A stretch of DNA of 63,692 bases, counting the filler, from Barthelona sp. PAP020 (Eukaryota), in assembly GCA_040182905.1 (NCBI GenBank). It is 30 parts of 30 records of this genome, joined end to end, with 100 filler letters (N's around TTAATTAATTAA, not from the genome) between each part and the next. Parts side by side here need not be neighbours in the genome. Positions count along the whole stretch, not along the records: positions 4,439 to 6,537 come from JARQWU010000867.1; 29 more parts are not named here. The stretch is one strand, 5' to 3'. The notes beneath the pieces are model-generated. The model ran no database searches and was not told the origin of the DNA. It worked only from the letters and a program-made list of their open reading frames with translations. A program made the position numbers and the translations under genes. Of this stretch, positions 3,742 through 62,218 are shown in pieces (position 1 is the stretch's first letter; every line of letters begins with the position of its first letter).

Positions 3742-4085
3742 TTAATAAGATTATTCAAAAAAACAAAAATAAGGAATTTTGTTTGTTTGTTGCTTTCAGA
3801 TTCAAACCATTTTTTTCAAATAATGATGATATTAATTTTTAAGCAATTAATAACACACCTGCACTGTTTATTTTTAAATTGGATTTTGCTTAACTTTTAA
3901 TAAACCATTTGACTGATCCAAAGGGAATAAAAAACAATAAATATTGAAAAACCTAAAGATTTTTTTTGTTGTCTTTCGTTCATACAAAATTATTGTCTGT
4001 TGAACTCTTAAATAATGAAATAAAGAATTGCCTGGTCACAGAACTTCAAACTTTCATTACAATTTCTATTTTTTCCTTTTTCAGT

Positions 4086-4157
4086 TCTTTCGTAGTGTAG
4101 TGGTCATCATTCAAGCCTGTCACGCTTGGGACCGGGGTTCGATTCCCCGCGAGAGAG
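4086..4157 (+). tRNA. tRNA-Asp(GTC)
   Basis: Acceptor TCTTTCG/CGAGAGA, anticodon arm CAAGC-CTGTCAC-GCTTG, T-loop GGTTCGATTCC, T-run shortly after. Confidence 0.96.
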
Positions 4158-4184
4158 AGTTTTGCATAGTCTTCTAAAGGAAGA

Positions 4185-4438: not shown

Positions 4439-4962
4439 ATGTATTGGATCATATTTAACAATCAGAAGTGCAAGAATAGAACCTAGAACATGTTTATTTT
4501 GTCTTTTGGGTGAAATCCGTCCGCTTTGCTACGAACACTTCACTCGACTTCACACGACAATAATAATAAATGTTTATAAAGATCTTTACTGTTCTCGGTT
4601 AGAGTTTGGGGGTACTTGCAACTGAGTCGTTTTGCGTGGATGGTTCAGAACACTCTTAAAGAAAAAAAGAAATGCTTCCAGTTCAGATAGGGCGGGTATT
4701 TAAAGAAAAGTGTAACACTTTCCTTTAGCCCCTTTATTCACTTTAAATATCTCCAGTTATGTTCTCTTTGTAGGACTTTGATAGTCTTTGTTGACCTAAT
4801 TTATTTACTTGTATCCATAATCTTTGAATTCTTACGATTAAGTTTAATATTACTTGAGCTTTTCAATTTTGATACCCATTAATATCAGAAATTGCAAGAA
4901 GAAACCATAAACACATTTATATTGTGTTTTGCGTGAAATCCGTCCGCTTTGCTGCGAACACT
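4439..4962 (+). repeat. Composite dispersed repeat, modules E-F-G-E
   Basis: E (...GTGAAATCCGTCCGCTTT) at 4440-4540, 4862-4962, 26385-26480, 61779-61877; F (CACACGACAATAATAAT...GGTTCAGAACACTCTT) at 4550-4660, 43038-43145 and (3' part) 26145-26190. Confidence 0.85.
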
Positions 4963-5026
4963 TCTTCATCAAGAAACATGAGTTAAACATTTCAACTAGC
5001 AAATGATAAGCTTAATTGAATGATAT

Positions 5027-6241
5027 TCACACACTGCAATCATCATCATTGTTTTCATTCATTTGTATACCCACAAAACTGTACATATTACCCCCTTTAG
5101 CCTCATTAAAGTCAATTAAATCCCAACAAAGATCAACTATCATGTCAAACTCCTCTCTATTCATGCAAATACCTGCAGCTACCAATTGTCTAATGATCTG
5201 AGTGTCGACTTTCATCGCAATTAGATTGGACAGCACGTGACCACCATCCTTTGATAATTCAATTATTTTGGAATGATGGGAAGAGTCACATTGAGAAACT
5301 ATTGAAAACATCCTTATTGTATTATTGGGACATTTTCCACATACTAACCATCTCATGTTGGGAGATATTGCAAAGGATAAGAAATTGGATCCATCACATC
5401 CACAGCAAATCCTTTGAATCTCCTGAAAATTTTCCATACTGTATAATGTCAAATAACCATCACCAGACATAACACCCAAAACAACAGGAGATAAAAAATG
5501 AAGGTCTCCCACTTGACCTTCCATAATAAATGTGTGCAGAAGTGTCAAACTGTCAGTGTTCCACAGTCTTACTTTGTTTGACTTATCGCCAATCGCAATT
5601 ATTCCCATAGTTGGATGGCATTCAATAGCTTTAACATAATCGTCATGATTGATTGTAAAAACAGAGAAATTTTGGGAATCAATCAAACCAACAGTTTTAT
5701 CTCCATCAGCAATTAAAAAATACTTATTGTCATATGAAATATTCAATTTCCAAATCAAATAATGAATTGTTCTTTCCCAAACAATATTGCTTTTTTCAAT
5801 ATCCCACTTCTTGAGGGTTCTATTGGCATCACTAAAATATATATATTTGGAGCAATGAGAAAAACAAATCGCACAAATATAAGTGTCATTCTTTATCCGA
5901 TCCAAAACAGAGAAATTTCGAAGGCTATAAACAGATAGAGAATTATCATCAGAAGATGTTGCTAATTTTTGTCTGTCCTTGGAAAATGCTGTGCTTATAA
6001 CCCAGTCAGAACTATTCCTATTTTTCAAAGTGCGACTAAGTCTTTTAGTTTTAATGTCAAACACATAAACATTGCTTCCATCATTAACCACTACCTTTTT
6101 ACCATCCATTGAATATCCACAATCAAACATATAATCAGAACACATTCCTCCAATTTGTCTGACATTGCTTTCATCAATTTTAAAAGAAAGCATGGCAAAA
6201 ATAGTTTTCTTCATTAATTCATTATTTGACTCCACATACAT
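5027..6241 (-). CDS. WD40-repeat protein with shared CWDL..GGNM C-terminal domain
   Basis: WD40 blades (ATSSDDNSLSVY, DKSNKVRLWN); full-length paralog of 9473-10672 and 33403-34611. Confidence 0.92.
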   Translation of the reverse strand: MYVESNNELMKKTIFAMLSFKIDESNVRQIGGMCSDYMFDCGYSMDGKKVVVNDGSNVYVFDIKTKRLSRTLKNRNSSDWVISTAFSKDRQKLATSSDDNSLSVYSLRNFSVLDRIKNDTYICAICFSHCSKYIYFSDANRTLKKWDIEKSNIVWERTIHYLIWKLNISYDNKYFLIADGDKTVGLIDSQNFSVFTINHDDYVKAIECHPTMGIIAIGDKSNKVRLWNTDSLTLLHTFIMEGQVGDLHFLSPVVLGVMSGDGYLTLYSMENFQEIQRICCGCDGSNFLSFAISPNMRWLVCGKCPNNTIRMFSIVSQCDSSHHSKIIELSKDGGHVLSNLIAMKVDTQIIRQLVAAGICMNREEFDMIVDLCWDLIDFNEAKGGNMYSFVGIQMNENNDDDCSV

Positions 6242-8427: not shown

Positions 8428-8731
8428 ATGTCAAACTTTGTTACTATTCTTTTGAGTGATAACAAAACTGTTCAAATAGACAAAGAACAAGCCTGTATAT
8501 CCCGATATATTGCAAGACAAATTGAAAAAAATGGTAGTCAAATAGAATTACCTTTTATCAATGTAAAATCTTTTGAAAAAGTCATAAAAGCACTTGAATT
8601 TGACCATTTCATTACCAAAAGAAAAAGTGATCATGATTTTATTTTTGATGCTGAATTAATTCAGTTTATGGGTGATTTCACCAATGTAACAACATCAGAA
8701 TTAATAGAATTAATAGATATTGCGAGTCAAT
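8428..8731 (+). CDS. Divergent Skp1-family (BTB/POZ) protein, 3' partial
   Basis: VTILLSDNKTVQI...ISRYI...IELPFINVKSFEKVI...LIELIDIAS. Confidence 0.75.
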
Positions 8732-9472: not shown

Positions 9473-10672
9473 TCAATCATCATCACTCTGTTCCTCTTTC
9501 AATTCAATAAAATTTGCCATATTTCCTCCATTTCTACCATTAATATCAACCAAATCCCAACAACTGCAATATATCATTTTAAATTCAGCAAAATTCATGC
9601 GAATACCTTTAGCTACAACAATTCTCAAAAAACTAGTGTTACAATGCCAGCGAATGAGATTTAATAAAACTGAATCTGTTTGTCGAGACAGATCAACAAA
9701 TTCTGATGGATTGAGCAAAGAATAATCTCCTAACAATGGATAAATCTTAATGTTATTTAGATCACATCTTCCACAAATCAAATTTGTTCGATCAGGTGAA
9801 ACATCAAATGAAAACCATCGCGGTTCACACCCACAAAAAACACTTTGAATTCTTTGTTGATTTTGAGCGTTGTAAAGAGTGATAAACCCATCTCCAGACA
9901 TAAAGAGCAATATCAATGATGTGATGAATTTTAGTGAAAAGACATTGCCTTCCACGCAAACTGTTTGAATAATTGAACCATCAAATGTCCAAATTATCAC
10001 TTTTTTTGATAAACTTGCAAGAGCAATAACATCTTCAAAGGGATGAAAGCAACCAAAAATAAATTGTTCAGACATGCGTTCAAACGTTTGAACAATTGAC
10101 ATATCTTTTAACAAAATAAGTTTGGCATCACTTTGATTGGTACAACTCAAAAGATATTTACCATTTGATGATATTGATAAATGATATACAGACGAGGAAT
10201 GAAGTTTAGAAGAATAAGTACAGATGTTCTGATCAACATCCATTTTGTGAACATATCCATTAATGTCCCCACAGTATAAAAACTTCGAACATTCAGAAAA
10301 AACAAAGTAGTAAGAGATAATTGATTTAATTTCCTTATAAATTGAAAAACTAGGGATGCTATATATGATAATTGAAGAGTCTAATGAACAAGTAGCCATA
10401 AATTGTCCATTTGGGGAGAAACCTACACAATAAACTTCATATCTATGATCTTGTAAAGAACGAATAACTTCCCCTGTTTTTCCATTAAATACAAATACAG
10501 TTTTATTGTAATCTACAACAGCAACATATTTACCATTGAATGAATATTTACAATCCTTCATATGATGAGAAATTAAACCTTCAATAGTTTTGACATTTTC
10601 TTCATCAATTCTCAATTGAAATTTTGAATCTAACGTCTTTTCGACTACATTTAACTCTGAATCATTTGACAT
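9473..10672 (-). CDS. WD40-repeat protein with shared CWDL..GGNM C-terminal domain
   Basis: DHRYEVYCVGFSPNGQFMATCSLDSSIIIY; C-terminus CWDLVDINGRNGGNM. Confidence 0.92.
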   Translation of the reverse strand: MSNDSELNVVEKTLDSKFQLRIDEENVKTIEGLISHHMKDCKYSFNGKYVAVVDYNKTVFVFNGKTGEVIRSLQDHRYEVYCVGFSPNGQFMATCSLDSSIIIYSIPSFSIYKEIKSIISYYFVFSECSKFLYCGDINGYVHKMDVDQNICTYSSKLHSSSVYHLSISSNGKYLLSCTNQSDAKLILLKDMSIVQTFERMSEQFIFGCFHPFEDVIALASLSKKVIIWTFDGSIIQTVCVEGNVFSLKFITSLILLFMSGDGFITLYNAQNQQRIQSVFCGCEPRWFSFDVSPDRTNLICGRCDLNNIKIYPLLGDYSLLNPSEFVDLSRQTDSVLLNLIRWHCNTSFLRIVVAKGIRMNFAEFKMIYCSCWDLVDINGRNGGNMANFIELKEEQSDDD

Positions 10673-11021: not shown

Positions 11022-13095
11022 TACATGATTGTTGGTGCATCCACTAAGGAAAATACTCCTGGTTTTGTTATGGCCAAGCGTTTTACTGGATTTTTTGAAG
11101 GTGAAACTTATTTGGTCAACCCTAAAGGTGGTGAATTATTTGGTCATGAACTTTATGTTAATCCCACAGCTTGTCCTCCCAATGTTGATGTTGCTGTTAT
11201 TGTTGTTCCTGCAAAGTTTGCAACAAAGGCCGTTCAAGATTGTTTAGATAATGGTTGTGTTAATTTTATCTTAATCTCTGGTGGTTTTGCCGAAATTGAT
11301 GAAGAAGGTGCCAGAATTCAAAACGATATTGTTCGTCGTGTCAAAGAAAGAGATGGTGTCATTATTGGACCCAATACCGTTGGTGTTTTTGACCCAGGTC
11401 ATGGTTTAGATACTGTTTTCTTACCTGAAGACAAGTTGGAACGTCCAAAAGCTGGTCCTATTTCAGTTATTTCCCAATCTGGTGCTCTTGTTGCAGCCAT
11501 TATGAACGAATTGGTTAATGCTAACATGCAAAATTCTGTTGCTAAAGTTCTTTCTCTTGGTAATGCCTGTGATATGAATGAACTTGACGCCATTCGTTTC
11601 TTAGCTGATGATGAATTCACTGAAATTATCTGGCAATATATGGAAGGACTTAAGAACGGTTCTGATTTCATTAGAACCCTTCGTACTGTCACTCCAAAGA
11701 AGCCTGTTGTTTCTATCAAGTCTAACAGAACTGCTGCTGGTGCTCATGCATCTGCTTCTCATTCTGCTTCCCTCGCTGCCAACGATACTGTTATGGATTA
11801 TTTATTGAATCAATCTGGTATTGTTCGTGTTGACAAATGGACTGATCTTTTTGAAGTTGGTCGTGGTTTACTTCACCAAGCTCTTCCTAAGGGATCTCGT
11901 GTCTGTATTGTCACTGATGGTGGTGGTATGGGTGTCATGTGTTGTGATGCTATTGATGATCATGGATTAGAATTAGCAACTCTTTCTGAATCAACTGTAA
12001 CTAAATTCCGTGAAATTTTCCCTCCTTTCTATCCCTGTGGAAATCCTCTTGATCTCACTGGTTCAGCCTCTGCTGATGATTTCGTCAAGGCTGTAAATTT
12101 GGCTATGGATGATGAAAACGTTGATGCTGTTATTTTAATTTGCCTCACTTGTGTTCCTAATGTTGATCCTACCACTTTTGTTGAAAAGGTCTCAAAGAAT
12201 TTTGGTAAGACTGAAGAATTTGGTGACAACCGTTCAAAGAAAACTCTTCTTGGTTGTTGTATGGGAGGAACTGTAGATCACATTATTTTTGACGGATTAA
12301 ATGCCGCTGGTATTCCTATATTTGAAACTGAAGTCAAAGCTGTTAACGTTCTTGCTAAAATGCGCAAGTATCAAATGTATCTTGATCAAGAATCCAAGGT
12401 TGTTGAAGAATTACCTATGATGAATAAATCTGATGAAATTCAAGCTATATTGGATGGTGCAAAGGCTGATAACCGTACTGTTTTATTGGAAAGTGAAGCT
12501 GCTCAAATTTTCCGTTACTCTGGACTTTCTTTGGCTCAAACCGCTGTTGTTCAAACTGCTGATGAGGCTGTTGAAGCTTGGAAGAGCTTTGGTTCAACTA
12601 AGGTTGTCATTAAACTTATTTCTCCTCAAGTTATTCATAAAACTGATGAAGGTGCTGTTTTCGTTGGCATCAATACTGAAGAAGAAATTAGACAAATCAC
12701 AAATCATCTTCTTGAAAAATTCGCCAATCGTGACATTCGTGGTATCTATGTTTGTGATATGGTTCCCAAGGGTACTGAAATGGTTGTTGGTATGAATCAA
12801 GATGATACTTTTGGAAAGGTTGTTGTTGCTGGTATTGGTGGTACTATGGTTGAAATCTTAAAAGATGCTACTTTCTCTCTTTGCCCTTGTACAAAGAAGG
12901 ATGCTCTTAAGATGATTGATGATCTTAAGTATCAACCCATTGTCAATGGTTATCGTGGTTCCCCTGCCGTTGATCGTGAAGGTTTGGCTGATAATATTGT
13001 TAAAATTAGTCAATTAGCCTCTCTTTATCCTGAAATTAAGGAAATTGATGCCAACCCCATCATTTTCTATGAAAACGGTTTTGCTGCTGTCGACG
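11022..13095 (+). CDS. ADP-forming acetyl-CoA synthetase (fused alpha/beta), partial at both ends
   Basis: IVGAS, VNPK, SGGFAE, IIGPN, ISQSG, SHSASLA (phospho-His motif), TDGGG, NPLDLTG, HKTDEG, EIDANP; strong codon bias. Confidence 0.93.
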
Positions 13096-14634: not shown

Positions 14635-14718
14635 TTTTAGAAAAAATATTTGGTCTCATCATCAAATAAGTTTTCATTTACGGTTGTATATGCCCTGATT
14701 TTCGCAACAGAGAAAGAT

Positions 14719-15014
14719 AATTGGTCCAGTTGTGAAACAGCTATATTTATTTACAAAGAAAGTAAACTCAGAAAACTCATTCTGGCAAATTTCAGTCAAA
14801 ATCCCAGGAGGGGAATTGAGGGATTGAAATGTAATTGAAATTCTTCAATACTATTCTTTTGAATTTTTGCAAAAGCAAAATTTTAAAGTTTAAACTTTCC
14901 CCAGAAAATCGAAAGTTTCTCAACAGATCAATCGGGCCTCGAAAGCCTTTGACCAAATAAACACTGTTCTTTTTTATTCACTCATACGCACAGTGCTTCT
15001 TGGCTTGGAAATAA
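14719..15014 (+). mobile_element. MITE family B, partial copy with right TIR
   Basis: Colinear with 20432-20753; ends CAGTGCTTCTTGGCTTGGAAATAA. Confidence 0.85.
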
Positions 15015-15151
15015 TCACATACATACACAAAGTTTCCAGTATTGGAAGTGACCGATAATAATCGTTTTGGCGGTAAAGTAAAAAGGATTTACCTAAGATC
15101 TATTTTTTGCTCTGCATAGCAAGCCCACATTTTATGATTACGTATTTTTTA

Positions 15152-17161: not shown

Positions 17162-17242
17162 GCTAAGGTGGTCGAGTGGTTAAGACGGTAGTTTGCTAAG
17201 CTGCTGCCGAAAGGCTCATGGGTTCGAATCCCATCCTTAGCG
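17162..17242 (+). tRNA. tRNA-Ser(GCT)
   Basis: Acceptor GCTAAGG/CCTTAGC, anticodon loop TTGCTAA, long variable arm GCCGAAAGGC, GGTTCGAATCC, TTTT after. Confidence 0.96.
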
Positions 17243-20385: not shown

Positions 20386-20753
20386 TTATTTCCAAGCCAA
20401 GAAGCACTGTGCGAATGAGTGAATAAAAAAGATTGGTCCAGCTGTGAAACAACATTATTTATTAACAAAGAAAGTAAACTCAGAAAACTCATTCCAGCAA
20501 ATTTCAGTCAAAATCCCAGGAGGGGAATTGAGGGACTGAAATGTAATTTGAACGATCAAGTAGGAGAATTTTGGAGAAATTCTTCATTCCTATTTTTTGT
20601 ATTTTTGCAAAAGCAAAATTTTAAAGTTTGAACTTTACCTTAGAAAATCTGAAGTCTTTCAACAAATCAATCGGGCCTCGAAAGCCATTAAAGAAATGAG
20701 CACTATTCTTTTTTGTTTACTCATACGCACAGTGCTTCTTGGCTTGGAAATAA
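20386..20753. mobile_element. MITE family B, complete non-autonomous TIR element (~368 bp)
   Basis: TTATTTCCAAGCCAAGAAGCACTGTGCGAATGAGTGAATAAAAAAGA ... TCTTTTTTGTTTACTCATACGCACAGTGCTTCTTGGCTTGGAAATAA; other pieces at 1590-1828, 20757-21023, 21085-21215, 23615-23893, 42300-42600, 51344-51438, 55832-55903. Confidence 0.88.
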
Positions 20754-32059: not shown

Positions 32060-32490
32060 ACATTGTTACTTTGTTGCCTGTAGCAGGGCCCAGAACTCTG
32101 CGAGAAGTCCAGTTAGCCTGTACCTGATGCGAGGCCAGAGCGTGTGCTTGACGTATGGAGAGACTCTTTGCAGACACTTGTTGAAGAAAGTAGAGACTGT
32201 GCTTGAGAAAAGACCAGTCTCTGAAAACACCAGAGGAATAACAGTATCACCGAACTTGCACTTTTTGCGTCTTTCAGCATACTCGATTGAGTTGGCAATA
32301 CTGATGTCATAGAGCTTCACAACTTTGGTTGAACTATCTGTCAATTGCATGTCTGCTCTACCTTGCTGAGTGACTGGTTCAATGTTTGGGACAATGAATT
32401 TAGCAAGGCGACCCAAGTTTCTCAATTCCTTTAGGACTGCATCGTGTCTTCTTCTACGTAGACTCTTCTGATTAAATGACTGATTAAATG
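32060..32490 (-). mobile_element. 3' fragment of a non-LTR retrotransposon with restriction-like endonuclease (RLE)
   Basis: Extending the ORF upstream gives RRRRHDAVLKEL...IEP...RADM...YDISI...RKKCKF...PLVFSETG, i.e. the RHD/EP/RxD/D/KxxK/P..G RLE motif order. Confidence 0.8.
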
Positions 32491-33402: not shown

Positions 33403-34611
33403 TCAATCAACAACTTCATCACTTTCATAATCACTTTGTTCATTGAAAAATGAGTGCATATTTCCACCCTTCATTTCATTGGTGTCAATCAAGTCCCAAC
33501 ATGTGTCAACAATCATGTTATACTCCACTTCATTCATGTATATCCCTGCAGCTACCAATTGTCTTATGACTTGAGTATCAATATTCAAAGCCATAAGATT
33601 CGACAATACATAGCCACCATCCCTTGACAATCGAATGAGTTCCGCCTCATGTGAGGGGTTATAGTCAATGACAATTGAATAGATTTTGATGACATTCCCT
33701 GCACATCTTCCACACGCTATTTGTCTCTTATCAGGGGATATAGCAAAGGAAAACTGGGCAAAGTCACAACCACAATGTACCTTTTGAATTTGCTGATAGG
33801 TTTCAACATTGAATGAAATAATATAGCCATCACCAGACATCATAAGCAAGATATAGGGTGATAAGAAATGAAGACACCATACTTGACCACCCATATCAAA
33901 TGTATGAATGAGTGATCCGTCGTCCATGTTCCAGAGTTTGACTTTTTTTGAAATATCACCAACAGCAATCATTCTTTCAGTTGGGTGAAAATCAATAGCT
34001 CTAATATCCCCATCATGACTGAATGTACGAACAACAGACAAATCATCTGGGTCAACCAACTTGGCAATATTACCACATCCAGTCAAAAGATATTTACCAT
34101 CTGTTGATAGTTTCACTCTCCAACAAGGGCCATTCGAAATTCTCTTTTCCAAGACAATACTCTCATTATTTGTGTCAATTTTCGTAAGAGTTCCATTGTA
34201 ATCAAAATAATATACATAATTTGAACAAGAAGAAAAACAAATTCTAAGAATAGCAATTTCACCATTCAATCTACATAAGATGGAGAAATCTGGAAGGCTG
34301 TATACAATGATAGACTTATCTTGGGAACATGTTGCCAGCTTCTGCCCATTTGGTGAAATTGCAATACCATAAACCTGGTGTGCATGCTCTTTCAATGTAC
34401 GATTCAACATTCCAGTTGCTACATCAATGATATGAACAGCTTTACGATCACAAACAACCAATTGTTTACCATTTGGCAAGTATTTACTGTCACACACATA
34501 AGCAGAATCAGAAATCACATTTGCAATTTCAACTTCACTATTTTCATCAATATTTAGAGGAAATAAACCACATATAAACTCTCCTATTTCACCACTTAAT
34601 TCAACAGACAT
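33403..34611 (-). CDS. WD40-repeat protein with shared CWDL..GGNM C-terminal domain
   Basis: EHAHQVYGIAISPNGQKLATCSQDKSIIVY; CWDLIDTNEMKGGNM. Confidence 0.92.
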   Translation of the reverse strand: MSVELSGEIGEFICGLFPLNIDENSEVEIANVISDSAYVCDSKYLPNGKQLVVCDRKAVHIIDVATGMLNRTLKEHAHQVYGIAISPNGQKLATCSQDKSIIVYSLPDFSILCRLNGEIAILRICFSSCSNYVYYFDYNGTLTKIDTNNESIVLEKRISNGPCWRVKLSTDGKYLLTGCGNIAKLVDPDDLSVVRTFSHDGDIRAIDFHPTERMIAVGDISKKVKLWNMDDGSLIHTFDMGGQVWCLHFLSPYILLMMSGDGYIISFNVETYQQIQKVHCGCDFAQFSFAISPDKRQIACGRCAGNVIKIYSIVIDYNPSHEAELIRLSRDGGYVLSNLMALNIDTQVIRQLVAAGIYMNEVEYNMIVDTCWDLIDTNEMKGGNMHSFFNEQSDYESDEVVD

Positions 34612-38050: not shown

Positions 38051-38674
38051 ATGAACACTTTTAATCACTTTTTTTGTTCGTTGTGTTGTTTAATATTGTT
38101 GTCATTCAAATTTTTTAAATATAGACAAATTAAAATATCATCTCTATGTGCTTGCGCATTATTATTTGGAACTTTTCAAGATTTAGATATGATATTTAGC
38201 AAACTATTTTTGAATAAACCAAGTTATCATTTGAGAACTTGGATACAGGAGCCTTTTGGTTTTCTTATAATAGGATCAGTTTTATCATTTGCTTTTTCAA
38301 CCCGTTTTAAAAAGAAAAGACTTGCATTTTATATTCTTATTCCATATTTCATACACGTTTTTCTTGATTATTTAGTAGTTCATGAAGTTTCACCCTTTGC
38401 ACCTTTTTCAAATTTTTCCATCAGCACTTCAAAATTATTTGCAAAATTTCGATCTTTTGATCAACCTCCAATTCTATCTTTGTTTGAGGGAGAATATTTG
38501 TCTGAATTGTGGGTTAATATATTTTCTATTGGTTGCTTTTTGTTTTTACTCAATAGAGTAAAAATTCACAACAAAAACAACAGGATAGAGGTCACAATTC
38601 TCGATTTAAAACAAATTATCACTTCTCCGCCTGAATTTACAATTGTGGCAAAAAGGATTGCTGATCGAGTGTGA
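38051..38674 (+). CDS. Membrane metal-dependent hydrolase, YdjM/YbcI-like
   Basis: N-terminal H, QDLD, HLRTW, HVFLD, PFAPFS with TM segments. Confidence 0.7.
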   Translation: MNTFNHFFCSLCCLILLSFKFFKYRQIKISSLCACALLFGTFQDLDMIFSKLFLNKPSYHLRTWIQEPFGFLIIGSVLSFAFSTRFKKKRLAFYILIPYFIHVFLDYLVVHEVSPFAPFSNFSISTSKLFAKFRSFDQPPILSLFEGEYLSELWVNIFSIGCFLFLLNRVKIHNKNNRIEVTILDLKQIITSPPEFTIVAKRIADRV

Positions 38675-41853: not shown

Positions 41854-42823
41854 AGTTTATTTTTGTAAATGTAATATCAAATGTTTTTTATGCCAATGAT
41901 AATCACACTTGCAAATTCTATTGAAGAAGTAACATTTCAGAAAGGAAAGAAGCAAATGAAAAAAGTATATACAATGACTTGACTGATCATAAATTGATTT
42001 TTGCCTGCTCAAGATTTTAAAGGGAAGAAACAATGCCATTGTGAATAAAAAACAATATTCATGGAAATGTTTTAATTGTTCCTTAGAAAGGCGCCAATGC
42101 TTTGTGTAATAAATCGAATTTATATGTCTTTGTTTTACACTTCCCAATCAAACAATAGAAACATCACTAACATAACTTTTATTTTTCATAAAATGGTATG
42201 ACAATATTTTAACCAGTTTCTTTAAGAAAAGAAAAATTGTGGTTAAATTGAGAAGAAATTTTTCAAAAGAAATTTCCAACAATTTAAAAAAATTTTCTTT
42301 TAGGGGAAAATTGAGGAACTGAAATGTAATTTTGGGCAAGTTTGAAAATTTTGGAGAAATCCTTCAATCCTACTTTTTTTATAAACTTTAAAATTTGGTT
42401 TTTGCAAAACTACAAAAAAATAGGAATGGAAAAATTTTTCCCAAATTTTCATACAAGACCAAGATTCCATTACAACCACTCATTTTCTGTGGTTGAGATT
42501 TAATGAAATGAGTTTTCTCTGATTTCTTTTTCTTTGCAAATAAATATTGTTGTTTCACAACTTGATTAAATATACTTAGGCTTTCCTGGCTTGGAAATAA
42601 TTTAAAATTACAAATTAACAATTGAATGTGAAAATAATTGTTCAACTTGAATTTATTCCTGTTTCCCATTTAATAACATTTATAGTTTTTAAATTGGAAG
42701 GGATAAAAGAAACCTTAAATATTCATGTTGTACATTTGGAAAGTCCTTTTCTTTGGGAAAAAAAAATCTATTGATTCTATTTCCTAAACATTAATGTACA
42801 AACACTTTGATTTTGCCCTAGAT

Positions 42824-42895
42824 GGGCTAATGGCTCAGTGGTAGAGTTCCTGGTTCGCATTCAGGGGGCCCCGGGTTCGATTCCCGGTTAGTCCA
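42824..42895 (+). tRNA. tRNA-Ala(CGC)
   Basis: Acceptor GGGCTAA/TTAGTCC with G3:U70, anticodon arm CCTGG-TTCGCAT-TCAGG, GGTTCGATTCC. Confidence 0.96.
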
Positions 42896-43245
42896 GTTTT
42901 TTCAATTTTTGTCGAGAAAAAGGATCGAGTTTCTCGAGTTTCAACAATTCACTTTGGACGAAAGGGTAAAATTAAAGGCTTTAATTTATATTTACTAACT
43001 GGGGTTGGGGAAATTACTCCATGGTATCTTTGCTGTTTCACACGACAATAATAATAAATGTTTATAAAGATCTTTATTGTTCTCGGTTAGAGTTTGGGGG
43101 TACTTGCAACTGAGTCGTTTTGCGTGGATGGTTCAGAACACTCTTNNNNNNNNNNNNNNNNNNNNNNNNNNNNNNNNNNNNNNNNNNNNTTAATTAATTA
43201 ANNNNNNNNNNNNNNNNNNNNNNNNNNNNNNNNNNNNNNNNNNNN

Positions 43246-46744: not shown

Positions 46745-47308
46745 ATGTCTTTATTTCATACTGGGGATATATGGAGTTGCGATGCCTTAATGAATGAAGA
46801 ATTTGGAGTTGATTCTTTTCAAATTTATGAACAACCTGACCAAGAATGTATTTGGATTTTTTTGTATGTTTAATTACTAATTTTCATAGCCAAAATAGTA
46901 GTTGGTTCTTTTCAAGGTATAGTTAAAGTTTATGAACCAAGTCGATCCAATTATAAAGCTGATCATTTAATTTTAGAGCAAAATTTGGAATTACCTGTTT
47001 ATCAAATATTAGTTGGTAAATTCTTACCACATTCTGATCAAAATGCAATTGCTTTTTTACATCCACGCAGTCTAAGTGTATTTTCGTTGGAAATTAATGC
47101 TTCTAAACTCGCATCTGGACAATATGCTTCATTAAATCTTCAATATCAACACGAATTACCAAGAAATTCTCATTCTATGATTTGTGGTCCTTTTGGAAAC
47201 AATGTAACCCATGATTTCATATGTGTACAATCAATGGATGGTGTGTGGTTTTTTTTTGACAGAGATAAACAGAGTTTTAATGTTTCTATGGGTTCTTATA
47301 TGGTTCCA
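46745..47308 (+). CDS. BBS9: BBSome subunit BBS9/PTHB1, one intron (46848-46889), 3' partial
   Basis: MSLF...W...EEF / KIVVGSFQG...LPVYQILVGKF...LHPR...GPFG...DFICVQSMDG; GT-AG intron removes an in-frame TAA. Confidence 0.9.
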
Positions 47309-48260: not shown

Positions 48261-48647
48261 TTATTGAGGTGTAATCAATCGATCGAAAGTAGCTTGTTGT
48301 TGTTCTATGCAAGCCAACAAACTTTCCTTTTCAACCAATAATCTCTCTAACTCATGTTTTTTCAAAGTAATTTGTTTTTTTAATTGTAATTTTTGTTGTT
48401 CTAAATCTTCTTTTGCATATTGAATTCTAGTTCTGTAACCTATTGCTCTCGATTGTTCCTTTTCAACAAAATGACTAAAATCTTGAGTAACTTCAATTAA
48501 TTTGGCAATATCTTCATTGAAATTGGATGATTTTTTGACAAAATCAATACTTTGATCTTTAACATCCACAGTTTTGTCAAATAATTGTGGAGCAAGAACT
48601 CTTAATCGATGTTCATTATCAAATTGAATTTTTTCTTCGTTTGACAT
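48261..48647 (-). CDS. IFT20: Intraflagellar transport protein 20
   Basis: FDNEHRLRVL...F...VEKEQSRAIGYR...ELERL...ESL...EQQQ. Confidence 0.9.
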   Translation of the reverse strand: MSNEEKIQFDNEHRLRVLAPQLFDKTVDVKDQSIDFVKKSSNFNEDIAKLIEVTQDFSHFVEKEQSRAIGYRTRIQYAKEDLEQQKLQLKKQITLKKHELERLLVEKESLLACIEQQQATFDRLITPQ

Positions 48648-49482
48648 GTTTAAAATTAGGTTTTTTGAAAAAAAGAATTTTGACTTTTCCAAGTTTTGTT
48701 GTCCATTTTATGGGTTTTTTAAATCAAGATTTTTGAAAGAAACTCCTTTTTTCTCACAATATTTAAATTGCTTTAATTACTTAAAGAAAATATTTTTTCT
48801 ACTGATTGCAATTGATACTCAATTTATAAAATTAAATCTCTTCTTTGATTGTTTCTTTATTTTCAGAAAGTTTGGTTGCGAGAAAGTTTCTATTTTCTTT
48901 TCTTTCTTTTAACGGTTCAATTTCTATTTTAATTTAATAGTAAATACATGGACACCATTTTTTTCCCTTTTTAATAAAAAAATTCACAAATGAAAATGTT
49001 GAAAGTTTATCCCATTAGCATATTTGATTTTTTTTAAACAAGCTGTGATTCTTTTTTTGGTTCTGAATAATCAAACAAAAGTTCCAAAGATTATAAAAAT
49101 CTCTTTTGATTTGAATACCAAATCATCGTTTGGTTTTCTTCTTCTGAAAATAAAGAATCTCAAAAAAATTTTATTAAAGTTGAATTCATAAAAAACAAAA
49201 GTGTGAGTAAATCAAACTCTAAAATATGACAAAAGTAAAAAATAGCCTCTTTAGACAATAAACCAATATTGCTATTTATTTTACAAGTGTTGTAAAAGAA
49301 AAATATGTAATTTGATGAATGCATTAAAAAAAAAAAAAAAAAAGGGTTAAAATCCCTTTGAAAAAATTTTTTTTCAAAAAAANNNNNNNNNNNNNNNNNN
49401 NNNNNNNNNNNNNNNNNNNNNNNNNNTTAATTAATTAANNNNNNNNNNNNNNNNNNNNNNNNNNNNNNNNNNNNNNNNNNNN

Positions 49483-51145: not shown

Positions 51146-51438
51146 TGTGGAAGTTCATGCTCAATGAACGGAATTTATTGGAGATATAAAGAGGTCATCA
51201 AATATCACTTCCTTTATTTATTGTTTCTTGACCACCTTTAGATCCAATTTTTTAAGTTACTTGGGCATCTGAATCCACGTGAGTTTTTCCCAAACCTTAA
51301 GCTAACTCGTTTCGTTGGTCATTGAACAACTCACACCTCATAATTATTTCCAAGCCAAGAAGCACTGTGCGTATGAGTGAATAAAAAAGAATAGTGTTTA
51401 TTTGGTTAAAGGCTTTCGAGGCCCGATTGATCTGTTGA
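51146..51438 (+). repeat. Family A copy directly abutting a family B terminus
   Basis: ...CACACCTCATAA/TTATTTCCAAGCCAAG... Confidence 0.9.
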
Positions 51439-51707
51439 NNNNNNNNNNNNNNNNNNNNNNNNNNNNNNNNNNNNNNNNNNNNTTAATTAATTAANNNNNN
51501 NNNNNNNNNNNNNNNNNNNNNNNNNNNNNNNNNNNNNNTTATAAAGGGCATTCAGTTCACGAACTAAACTCAGATCAGGAATTGACAAACACCAACTAGC
51601 CAACCTTCTCATCCTATAATCCTTGTAAAAGCTTTTATAATCATTTTCTGTTTTGCATCTTGAATTGCGAAACTCGATCCTGTTTCCTTCAGAAGAAATT
51701 TAAAAAA

Positions 51708-51781
51708 CACCGGTACTGGGACTCGAACCCAGAATCCTCAGATTAGAAGTCTAATACCCTATCCAATTAGGCTATACCGGC
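51708..51781 (-). tRNA. tRNA-Arg(TCT)
   Basis: Reverse complement GCCGGTA...TTAGA-CTTCTAA-TCTGA...GGTTCGAGTCC...TACCGGTG, followed by T6. Confidence 0.96.
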
Positions 51782-51952
51782 ATATTGAACATCTAATTTT
51801 AAATTTTAAAGTTATATTTGGTAAGAATTCCCTCTAAAGAGTTATTGTGCTCAAAAAATAGAGAGCAAAACGTTTATTCATTAATTTGAAAAAGAAAAAA
51901 AAAAGACAATCAAAACTTTAAAATACATTTATTTTACAAAAATAATGACATT

Positions 51953-57069: not shown

Positions 57070-57356
57070 AGTTGCAGATAGTTCAACCAAAGTTGTGAAG
57101 CTCTATGATATCAGTATCGCCAACTCAATCGAGTATGCTGAAAGACGCAAAAAGTGCAAGTTCGGTGATGCCTGTTGTTCCTCTGGTGTTTTCAGAGACT
57201 GGTCTTTTCTCAAGTACAGTCTCTACTTTCTTCAACAAGTGTCTGCAAAGGGTCTCTCCCTACGTCAAGCACACACTCTGGCCTCGCATCAGGTACAGGC
57301 TCGCTGGACTTCTCGCAGAGTTCTGGGCCCTGCTACAGGCAACAAAGTAACAATGT
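57070..57356 (+). mobile_element. Second 3' fragment of the RLE retrotransposon, frameshifted
   Basis: Near-identical reverse complement of 32060-32345; +1 frameshift at GATGCCTGTT. Confidence 0.85.
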
Positions 57357-57394
57357 CAAGTATCTTTTCAAATAAACAGGGAAAATAGGTATCA

Positions 57395-57591
57395 CTACGA
57401 TAAATTGTAATATGGCTCCAAAAGTTCAACGATTGCAGAATGACCTTCAAATTTAGCAACATATTTGGCTGAATAATTTCGGCATTTTTTAAACACATCA
57501 GCTCCACGATCCAAAAGCATTTTAACAACATCATAATGACCTTTTTGACAGCTAGCAAACAATGGAGAAACACCATTATTCTTGCACAAAT
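57395..57591 (-). CDS. Ankyrin-repeat protein 3' end, 5' partial; no shared C-terminal domain
   Basis: CKNNGVSPLFASCQKGHYDVVKMLLDRGADV. Confidence 0.85.
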
Positions 57592-57691: not shown

Positions 57692-59632
57692 ATCATCAAC
57701 ATCTTCAATAACAGGTTCAGAAGAAGCTGAAGGACCAGTAGCACCAGCTCCAGGGAATCCAGCACCACCGGGGAATCCACCAGGGAATCCAGCTTGACCT
57801 TGAGCACCAGGTTGTCCACCCATGGCAGCATAAGCAGCTTGAAGAATAGGCATAAATTGACCTTCTAATTCTTTTTGCTTTTCTTCATAGACTTCCTTGG
57901 TTTCATTGGGATGACCAGCAATCCATTGAGCAGTTTCTTCAACAAGTTCATTGATCTTTTTGACAGAGTCTTCAGGAATCTTGTCCTTTAATTCACCGGT
58001 AAGAGAGTTACGAACACCAAAGATATATGTTTCAAGTTTGTTCTTTGCTTCAATTTGATCAGCAACCTTTCTGTCAGCTTCTGCATTGGCTTCAGCTTCA
58101 GCAACCATGTTGTCGATTTGTTCCTTGGAAAGACGACCAGTATCATTTGTGATAGTGATTTGGTTAGTCTTACCAGTTCCCTTTTCTTCAGCAACAACGG
58201 ACATAATACCGTTGGCATCAACTTTGTATGTAATTTCAATTTTGGGAGTTCCACGAGGAGCTGGGGGAATATCATTGAGGAAGAAAGAACCAATCAAGTT
58301 GTTGTGTTTGGTTAATGGTCTTTCACCTTCAAAGACACGGATTTCAACTGAAGTTTGGTTATCAGCAGCAGTGGTGAAAATATCCTTCTTCTCACAAGGA
58401 GTCATAGTTCCTCTAGGAATAAGAGTAGCCATACGTTGACCTTGAGTTTCAATTCCCAAAGACAAAGGAGTGACATCAACAAGAATAATGTCTTGGGTTT
58501 CTTCAGTGGCTTCACCGGCAAGGATGGAAGCTTGAATGGCAGCACCCCAAGCAACAGCTTCATCAGGGTTGATGTTTCTGGCAGGTTCCTTTCCATTGAA
58601 GAATTCCTTGATTAATTCTTGAATCTTGGGAATACGAGTTGAACCACCAACTAAAACAACTTCATGAATTTCATTCTTATCCAAATCAGCATCACGAAGA
58701 ACGTTTTCAACGGGTTTCATGCAAGAACGGAAAAGATCCATGTTTAATTGTTCAAAACGAGCACGAGTTAATTGACATTCAAAATCTTCACCTTCAAAGA
58801 GAGCTTCAATTTCAATAGTGGTTTGGGCAGAAGAGGAAAGAACAATCTTAGCTCTTTCAGCTTCATTTCTCAAACGACGAAGGGCACGATCAGAAGATTC
58901 AATGTTGAGTCCAGGATGTTGTTTCTTAAATTCTTCAACCAAATATTTAACGATACGAGAATCAAAGTCTTCACCACCCAAGTGAGTATCACCGTTAGTG
59001 GCAATAACATTGAAGAAATCTCCTTCAATGGCAAGAAGAGATACATCGAAAGTACCACCACCAAGATCGAAAATCAAAACGTTACGTTCAACTTCTGTGT
59101 TATTGTTCAAACCATATGCAATAGCGGCAGCAGTGGGTTCATTAAGAACACGTAAAACATTAAGACCAGCAATACGACCAGCATCCTTTGTAGAATTTCT
59201 TTGAGAATCATTGAAATAAGCAGGAACAGTAACAACAGCATCCTTAACTTCAGTACCAAGATAAGCTTCAGCAATGCTAACCATCTTTTCTAAGACCATG
59301 GCAGAAATTTGTTCAGCATAATAACGCTTCTTTTCACCTTGGAAGTTAACTTCAATCATGGGACGATCATTGTCTCCTTGAATAACGTCAAAATGCCAAT
59401 GCTTCATATCTTCTTGAACGGTTCTGTCAGAAAAACGACGTCCGATAAGACGCTTTGCATCAAAGACAGTGTTCTTAGGATTACGAGCAGCCTGACGTTT
59501 GGCGGCTTCACCAATAAGACGTTCACGCTTTGTAAAAGCAACATAAGAAGGAGTAGTTCTGCGACCTTGATCGTTTGTAAGAATTTCAACACGACCATTG
59601 TTCATAACACCAACACATGAGTAGGTGGTACC
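57692..59632 (-). CDS. HSP70: Cytosolic-type HSP70, nearly complete (start and stop beyond contig ends)
   Basis: [43 protein letters not shown] repeats, terminal IEDVDD. Confidence 0.97.
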
Positions 59633-61670: not shown

Positions 61671-62218
61671 NNNNNNNNNNNNNNNNNNNNNNNNNNNNNN
61701 NNNNNNNNNNNNNNTTAATTAATTAANNNNNNNNNNNNNNNNNNNNNNNNNNNNNNNNNNNNNNNNNNNNTCGAGTTTTTCAATTTTGATACCCATCAAT
61801 ATCAGAAATTGCAACAAGAAACCTTAAAAATTTTTATACGGCTCTTTGCATGAAATCCGTCCGCTTTCCTACGAACATAAAGAAATTATTCCAGTTTGGG
61901 TGGGGCAGGTGTTTGAAGAAAAGATTCACACTTTTTTATACCTTCAACCTCCAACCCTGATCTGATTCACTTTAAATGTTTGATATCAATTAAGTGTTTG
62001 ATTGACATTATGTGTAAGATACACATTATTTCCTTCTTTTCCAGCCCTTTTGTCTTTATTATTTATTTGTATAACATTTCTATTTTGAAAAGAAAAAAAG
62101 AAACCATAACAAATATTTTATAAAGTTAATTGAATGGATGTGAAAAATGGAAAACAATAATAAATGTGACACATAAGAAAAAGAAGAAAAGAAAAAGACT
62201 TTTGAACGAAATTCAGTA

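Follow-up and report, generated by a model that had tools for sequence, protein, structure and literature searches.

Barthelona sp. PAP020 encodes a large family of repeat proteins that end in the same mobile C-terminal domain of about 70 aa, followed by an acidic tail. The domain is a real, uncatalogued, shuffled, docking-type module; its sequence family is a new one, and our searches returned no clear fold relative. The kind of system that it most likely serves is already known. On our analysis, it may act as a constant plug by which all these repeat proteins dock on one and the same partner, for which a cullin/Skp1-type ubiquitin ligase is the best candidate, a proposal that we advance tentatively.

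Members and anatomy of the domain family

The window, that is, the whole stretch of 63,692 nucleotides analyzed here, comprises 30 contigs of about 2 kb with N spacers between them and has 31% G+C. An earlier note on this DNA had described five intact ORFs and a pseudogene as sharing the domain. A detection profile from alignment A3, restricted to its 36 rows from outside the window and searched against the window's six frames recovered all six (E values below), and the same profile gave no match below E 0.3 in the reversed frames. Each of the five carrier ORFs lies on its own contig with the motif at its 3′ end, and Pfam typed their bodies as WD40 (four) and ankyrin (one). The ankyrin ORF proved incomplete, being open from 21844, and the pseudogene, said to end like the carriers, is a broken domain with no repeat remnant detected upstream. 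Both ankyrin genes described as lacking the domain do end without it, but the one at 57395 is represented by its last ~65 codons only.

5027–6241 (−): WD40 gene, 404 aa; N-terminal helix, seven-blade propeller (aa 18–318), domain, acidic tail; E 9.5e-33
5075–5284 (−): domain of the 5027 gene, aa 320–389, with the invariant R, G, D-L, N, and G-N
5030–5074 (−): acidic tail of the 5027 gene, 15 aa
9473–10672 (−): WD40 gene, 399 aa; domain at 9509–9718; E 9.6e-26
33403–34611 (−): WD40 gene, 402 aa counted from ATG; domain at 33448–33657; E 5.1e-31
24462–25880 (+): divergent WD40 gene, 472 aa; domain at 25530–25751, tail of 42 aa; E 1.2e-15
21844–23415 (+): ankyrin gene, 12 Pfam Ank stretches, 5′-cut by the contig edge; domain at 23149–23358; E 1.1e-28
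1362–1601 (−): broken copy, domain alone, with in-frame stops; nearest to ankyrin-type copies; E 3.4e-4
31012–31692 (−): ankyrin paralogue without the domain
57395–57591 (−): domain-less ankyrin gene, 3′ end only, its 5′ part past the contig edge

Domain identity to the copy at 5075–5284 was 48% for the ankyrin carrier and 38% for the WD40 carrier at 9473. The ankyrin paralogue at 31012–31692 matches the start of the ankyrin carrier with 44% identity across 193 aa, yet the domain is missing.

A five-sequence profile searched against 1.84 billion representative proteins matched 43 proteins at E ≤ 0.001, and two word-seeded searches supplied further carriers (4 of 17 and 17 of 7,991 candidates). 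The full motif was present in 55 of the 58 proteins collected; of the remaining three, P0047 matched in part and two, cluster members of 51 aa, lack the motif. At <90% identity over the domain core, these represent at least 51 distinct carriers, a lower bound that bears out the large family suggested earlier and corresponds to ~0.8% of the 6,305 predicted proteins of this organism (PMC11316075, Table 1). All 30 carriers traced by name belong to EukProt EP00792, Barthelona sp. PAP020 (metamonad), and since the database relatives are transcript-derived, they are expressed.

WD40 is the commonest body among carriers. Ankyrin bodies were found in P0010, P0011, and P0040, an importin-alpha-like armadillo body in P0030 (E 5.5e-8), and a non-repeat body without any known domain in P0052 (253 aa), which extends the original claim that the module is shuffled between unrelated folds. 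Three carriers of 877 to 961 aa appear by eye to have double propellers, with little or no Pfam support, and kinase-like words seen by eye ahead of the P0040 ankyrins were confirmed by neither Pfam nor PDB. A helical-looking stretch of 60 to 130 aa precedes the propeller in P0037, P0042, P0043, and P0048–P0053, where a common module was not supported (1 of 9, leave-one-out). Two 59-aa matches and one 145-aa match have the appearance of transcript fragments, and no stand-alone adaptor gene bearing the domain was established among the matches. Because at least three unrelated folds bear the domain, there have been at least two transfers, a minimum that the tree does not refine: constraining the five non-WD40 copies together gave a p-AU of 0.28 (24 of 52 rows). 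The family likely grew by gene duplication, with the segment that encodes the domain also being copied to other repeat genes at their 3′ ends.

Seven residues (R36, G42, D59, L60, N64, G69, and N70) are invariant in all 53 aligned domain sequences, among which pairwise identity drops to 23%; the consensus core reads iR.Lv..Gi.mn..ef..i.d.cWDLvdiNe.nGGNm..F. In 55 of 55 carriers the domain is present once, and the stop codon follows 7 to 30 aa after the motif. The terminal residue is Asp in 41 of the 55, versus none of the 22 other complete window ORFs, and 35 of the 55 end in Asp-Asp. Given that 14 carriers lack the terminal Asp and that P0038 has the domain with the acidic tail wholly missing, the tail is auxiliary. 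AlphaFold2 modeled the domain with a pLDDT of 91 and a pTM of 0.79, placing helices at residues 5–15, 21–27, 32–40, 47–66, and 71–74, and a compact helical fold is thus predicted. A single Cys is present in 42 of 53 sequences, and there is no invariant catalytic-type Cys or His in the alignment.

The domain had been called unassigned, and with a profile built and searched it stays so: no significant Pfam match was found for 41 members (families up to E about 0.1), nor did PDB-sequence and fold searches give a significant match, the fold search returning two pandoraviral F-box proteins at E 6.5 to 7.8 with a TM of only 0.2. We found no description of the domain in literature on Barthelona and barthelonids, on ankyrin and WD40 C-terminal domains, or on the SOCS box and PRANC. 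The terms WD40, ankyrin, and ubiquitin are absent from the main text of the genome paper, the supplements of which could list such genes.

Genomic setting of the window copies

The contigs contain tRNA genes and dispersed repeats, and ~100-bp stretches at contig ends are identical, so that the window looks like short genomic pieces of a eukaryote. A dispersed, non-coding repeat of ~215 bp (91 to 100% identical) often lies at contig ends, with one copy ~220 bp from the broken domain copy at 1362–1601. A palindromic family with 144-nt inverted arms, 81% complementary, is MITE-like by appearance and has a copy ~200 bp downstream of the ankyrin carrier; a second dispersed non-coding family lies directly downstream of the WD40 gene at 5027–6241. 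Two stretches at 32029–32340 and 57075–57388 are 93% identical, each sharing a contig with one of the domain-less ankyrin genes; by eye, their translation resembles what is left of a non-LTR retroelement's restriction-like endonuclease, and they had no Pfam match. Three of the four window tRNA genes lie near shared repeats at contig ends.

1822–2130, 3532–3747, 20106–20322, 38795–38897, 51140–51347: ~215-bp repeat
20423–21030, 14713–15015, 23619–23893, 42302–42578, 51343–51438: palindromic repeat
4461–4964, 26145–26479, 43037–43145, 61773–61877: second dispersed repeat
4085–4158, 17162–17242, 42823–42896, 51707–51782: tRNA genes Asp, Ser, Ala, and Arg
11025–13095 (+): ADP-forming acetyl-CoA-synthetase-like gene
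48261–48692 (−): IFT20
46985–47308 (+): BBS9-like fragment, by eye

The gene at 11025–13095, which we take from its Pfam domains to be ADP-forming acetyl-CoA-synthetase-like, together with IFT20 and the BBS9-like fragment, gives signs of an anaerobic flagellate. A YdjM-like membrane hydrolase gene at 38051–38674 (+) (Pfam E 1e-8) belongs to a mainly bacterial family and is a possible lateral transfer. The frame of an Hsp70-like gene at 57692–59605 (−) reads ...IEDVDD to the contig edge, and would have the same Asp-Asp end as carriers if a stop comes next.

A constant domain on variable bodies

Among 27 WD40 paralogues, mean pairwise identity was 48% in the domain (55% in its second half), compared with 37% in the propeller and 24% in the N-terminus. 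For the window copies at 5027 and 33403, dN was estimated at 0.22 (domain) and 0.41 (propeller); dS exceeded 1 and came to about 1.9 for the domain, rough values near saturation. Variation within the propeller was resolved by position in 34 WD40 paralogues, using the columns R1, R1-2, and D-1 that are predicted hot spots of the top face, hand-assigned from the definitions of PMC3419727 (19 columns, 2 of 21 having been dropped as misaligned). These columns had 3.17 bits versus 2.11 bits for the 257 other propeller columns (p 8e-8) and were richer in aromatic residues (30% versus 11%). The most variable propeller positions are those of the predicted ligand face. A variable top face is expected in any set of WD40 paralogues and thus indicates diverse ligands, saying nothing on ubiquitin. 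The alignments show diverse ligands at the head and, at the tail, one function that is conserved, as would be seen in receptors that share a constant partner and serve many clients.

The full-length WD40 model (pLDDT 90, pTM 0.85) shows a helix at 6–17 and a seven-blade propeller closed by the strand at 18–30, with the domain directly after the strand at 308–318. In standard WD40 topology, both chain ends exit on the bottom face, leaving the top face free as in known ligase receptors; we infer that the domain lies on the face opposite the ligand face.

Candidate partners and alternative roles

SOCS-box proteins of the WSB (WD40-SOCS) and ASB (ankyrin-SOCS) types, which work with Elongin B/C and Cul2/5, resemble the carriers in layout: a single short helical module closes repeat bodies of unrelated kinds, WD40 and ankyrin included, at their very C-terminus. 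In contrast to the ~40-aa SOCS box, the domain spans ~70 aa, is followed by an acidic tail, and lacks a BC box or LPxP by the consensus patterns; none of 41 domain members had a SOCS match in Pfam. LPxP-like, BC-box-like, and WDxR-like patterns each occur in 1 of 55 domains, at non-equivalent places, the lone BC-box-like pattern sitting upstream of helix 1. F-box proteins and poxviral ANK-PRANC proteins (Skp1-Cul1) likewise join a repeat body to a small helical adaptor, which is C-terminal in ANK-PRANC proteins. The domain differs from both in that LPxE is missing in 55 of 55 and Pfam F-box or PRANC matches are absent, and from ANK-PRANC in occurring also on WD40 and armadillo bodies. The reported lack of F-box and SOCS-box motifs therefore extends to the family at large. 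With respect to DCAFs, a WDxR-like (DWD) word occurs anywhere in only 3 of 56 proteins, and the helix at aa 6–17 before the propeller, compared with the DCAF H-box, lies in a region that is only 24% conserved and was not detected in non-WD40 carriers.

Protist systems offer further parallels. According to PMC12816148, the cullin clade using SOCS and VHL adaptors is restricted to Amorphea, and trypanosome cullins work with novel Skp1 paralogues and with client adaptors that show no F-box, DCAF, or BTB signature. The trypanosome kelch/LRR adaptors described there are, like the carriers, a protist-specific expansion of repeat proteins without a canonical box; they were found by immunoisolation, whereas the carriers were identified from sequence, and here a single conserved domain is common to several folds. 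Giardia, a metamonad relative, also combines an expanded ankyrin family with one C-terminal module, PMC7029713 describing 30 ankyrin proteins with an XB3-like, C-terminal ubiquitin-ligase RING. The domain is not a RING, because it has one non-invariant Cys and is predicted to be all-helical, and a search for Cys/His zinc ligands or a U-box found no conserved His pattern in 53 domains and no Pfam match.

We tentatively read the domain, by analogy, as a ligase-receptor plug because of the receptor layout, the constant-plus-variable pattern, and the trypanosome and Giardia precedents, together with the window's own weak Skp1/Elongin-C-like fragment. Each repeat body would choose a different client for ubiquitination, and the domain would bind one partner common to all carriers, which would be a ubiquitin-ligase scaffold. 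The pairing of a conserved domain with a variable propeller face lends indirect support to a receptor-like layout, but variable heads on a constant domain would be compatible with a shared scaffold of any sort. A candidate partner is the divergent Skp1/Elongin-C-like ORF at 8428–8731 (+), which is clipped by the contig end and unlinked; it matched Pfam Skp1_POZ at E 0.005, below the cut-off, and PDB Skp1a at E 0.016, and a database search for relatives, including a full-length one, found none. Counting against the ligase reading are the absence of any known box motif and a report that Giardia, in the sister lineage, has neither Skp1 nor Cullin1 (PMC7029713). Conceivably, and with slightly less assurance than the plug itself, the domain may be a ligase box of a new kind, a C-terminal adaptor of barthelonid metamonad origin, distinct in fold, that would have taken over the recruitment of substrate receptors for about 1% of the proteome. 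WD40, ankyrin, and armadillo receptors would then dock on a divergent Skp1-like adaptor, on a cullin itself, or on a cullin-free ligase core.

Several other roles must be weighed against a ligase plug. The domain and its acidic end might dock repeat proteins on a shared machine other than a cullin ligase, such as the proteasome, chromatin, a scaffold of the cytoskeleton, or a chaperone or TPR clamp that recognizes the terminal Asp. The modularity and conservation data are equally compatible with this, cullin-box motifs are absent, and the terminal Asp, retained in 41 of 55, is not known to be required by cullin boxes; but 14 carriers do without that residue and there is no positive lead to any such machine, which leaves the idea possible yet somewhat unlikely. 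A self-association domain in the manner of SAM, LisH, or death-fold modules, assembling WD40, ankyrin, and armadillo homo- or hetero-oligomers, would account for a small helical domain shuffled over many bodies, with a conserved surface allowing paralogues to mix. We consider it unlikely, since a strongly acidic tail in the last position would probably repel a tail-to-tail oligomer and no stand-alone adaptor gene was established, the short matches resembling transcript fragments. It is similarly improbable that the domain is a heavily changed UBA-like domain binding ubiquitin or a ubiquitin-like protein. Only one Pfam family, UBA_BIRC2-3 (PF21290), matched as many as two of the 41 members (best E 0.046), the likeness falls over helices 2–4, which are spaced as in UBA, and the P0015 match spans model positions 9–49 of 53 (E 0.056). 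However, the 13.9 bits of that match are half of the 27.2-bit cut-off, 39 of 41 members have no match, the would-be MGF loop varies (M in 13 and G in 9 of 53), and the invariant residues fall outside it, in a conserved core that extends partly past the UBA span.

The suggestion that the domain is the signaling or enzymatic effector end of immune-like sensors, whose repeats sense prey, viruses, or symbionts, fared poorly. The large, recent, lineage-restricted expansion, the variable and aromatic-rich ligand faces, and the one broken copy would all suit such sensors. Nevertheless, no NLR-like NACHT or NB-ARC NTPase was found in the five window carriers or the database carriers scanned, the single Cys is not invariant, and the invariant R, G, D, L, N, G, and N of a 70-aa helical domain look non-catalytic, so that we hold this role to be quite improbable. 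Least probable by far is a functionless passenger segment spread by mobile repeats. The proximity of the domain-only broken copy to a dispersed repeat is in its favor, but the conservation data contradict it: seven residues stay invariant at such low identities, dN is far under dS, and the predicted fold is confident.

The known plugs that connect receptors to ligases amount to a handful of boxes, namely F-box, SOCS/VHL, BTB, and DWD. If the ligase-plug reading is true, upwards of 50 proteins in a small proteome would use one new box of distinct fold. The SOCS-box design would then have been reinvented independently next to a lineage that is reported to have lost SCF, and the receptor-plug layer would be rebuildable from scratch in a lineage beside Giardia. 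Whatever the partner, the domain profile annotates about 50 otherwise anonymous genes, and the invariant 70-aa domain is a bait that provides a direct experimental handle on a major regulatory hub of a deep-branching anaerobic eukaryote.
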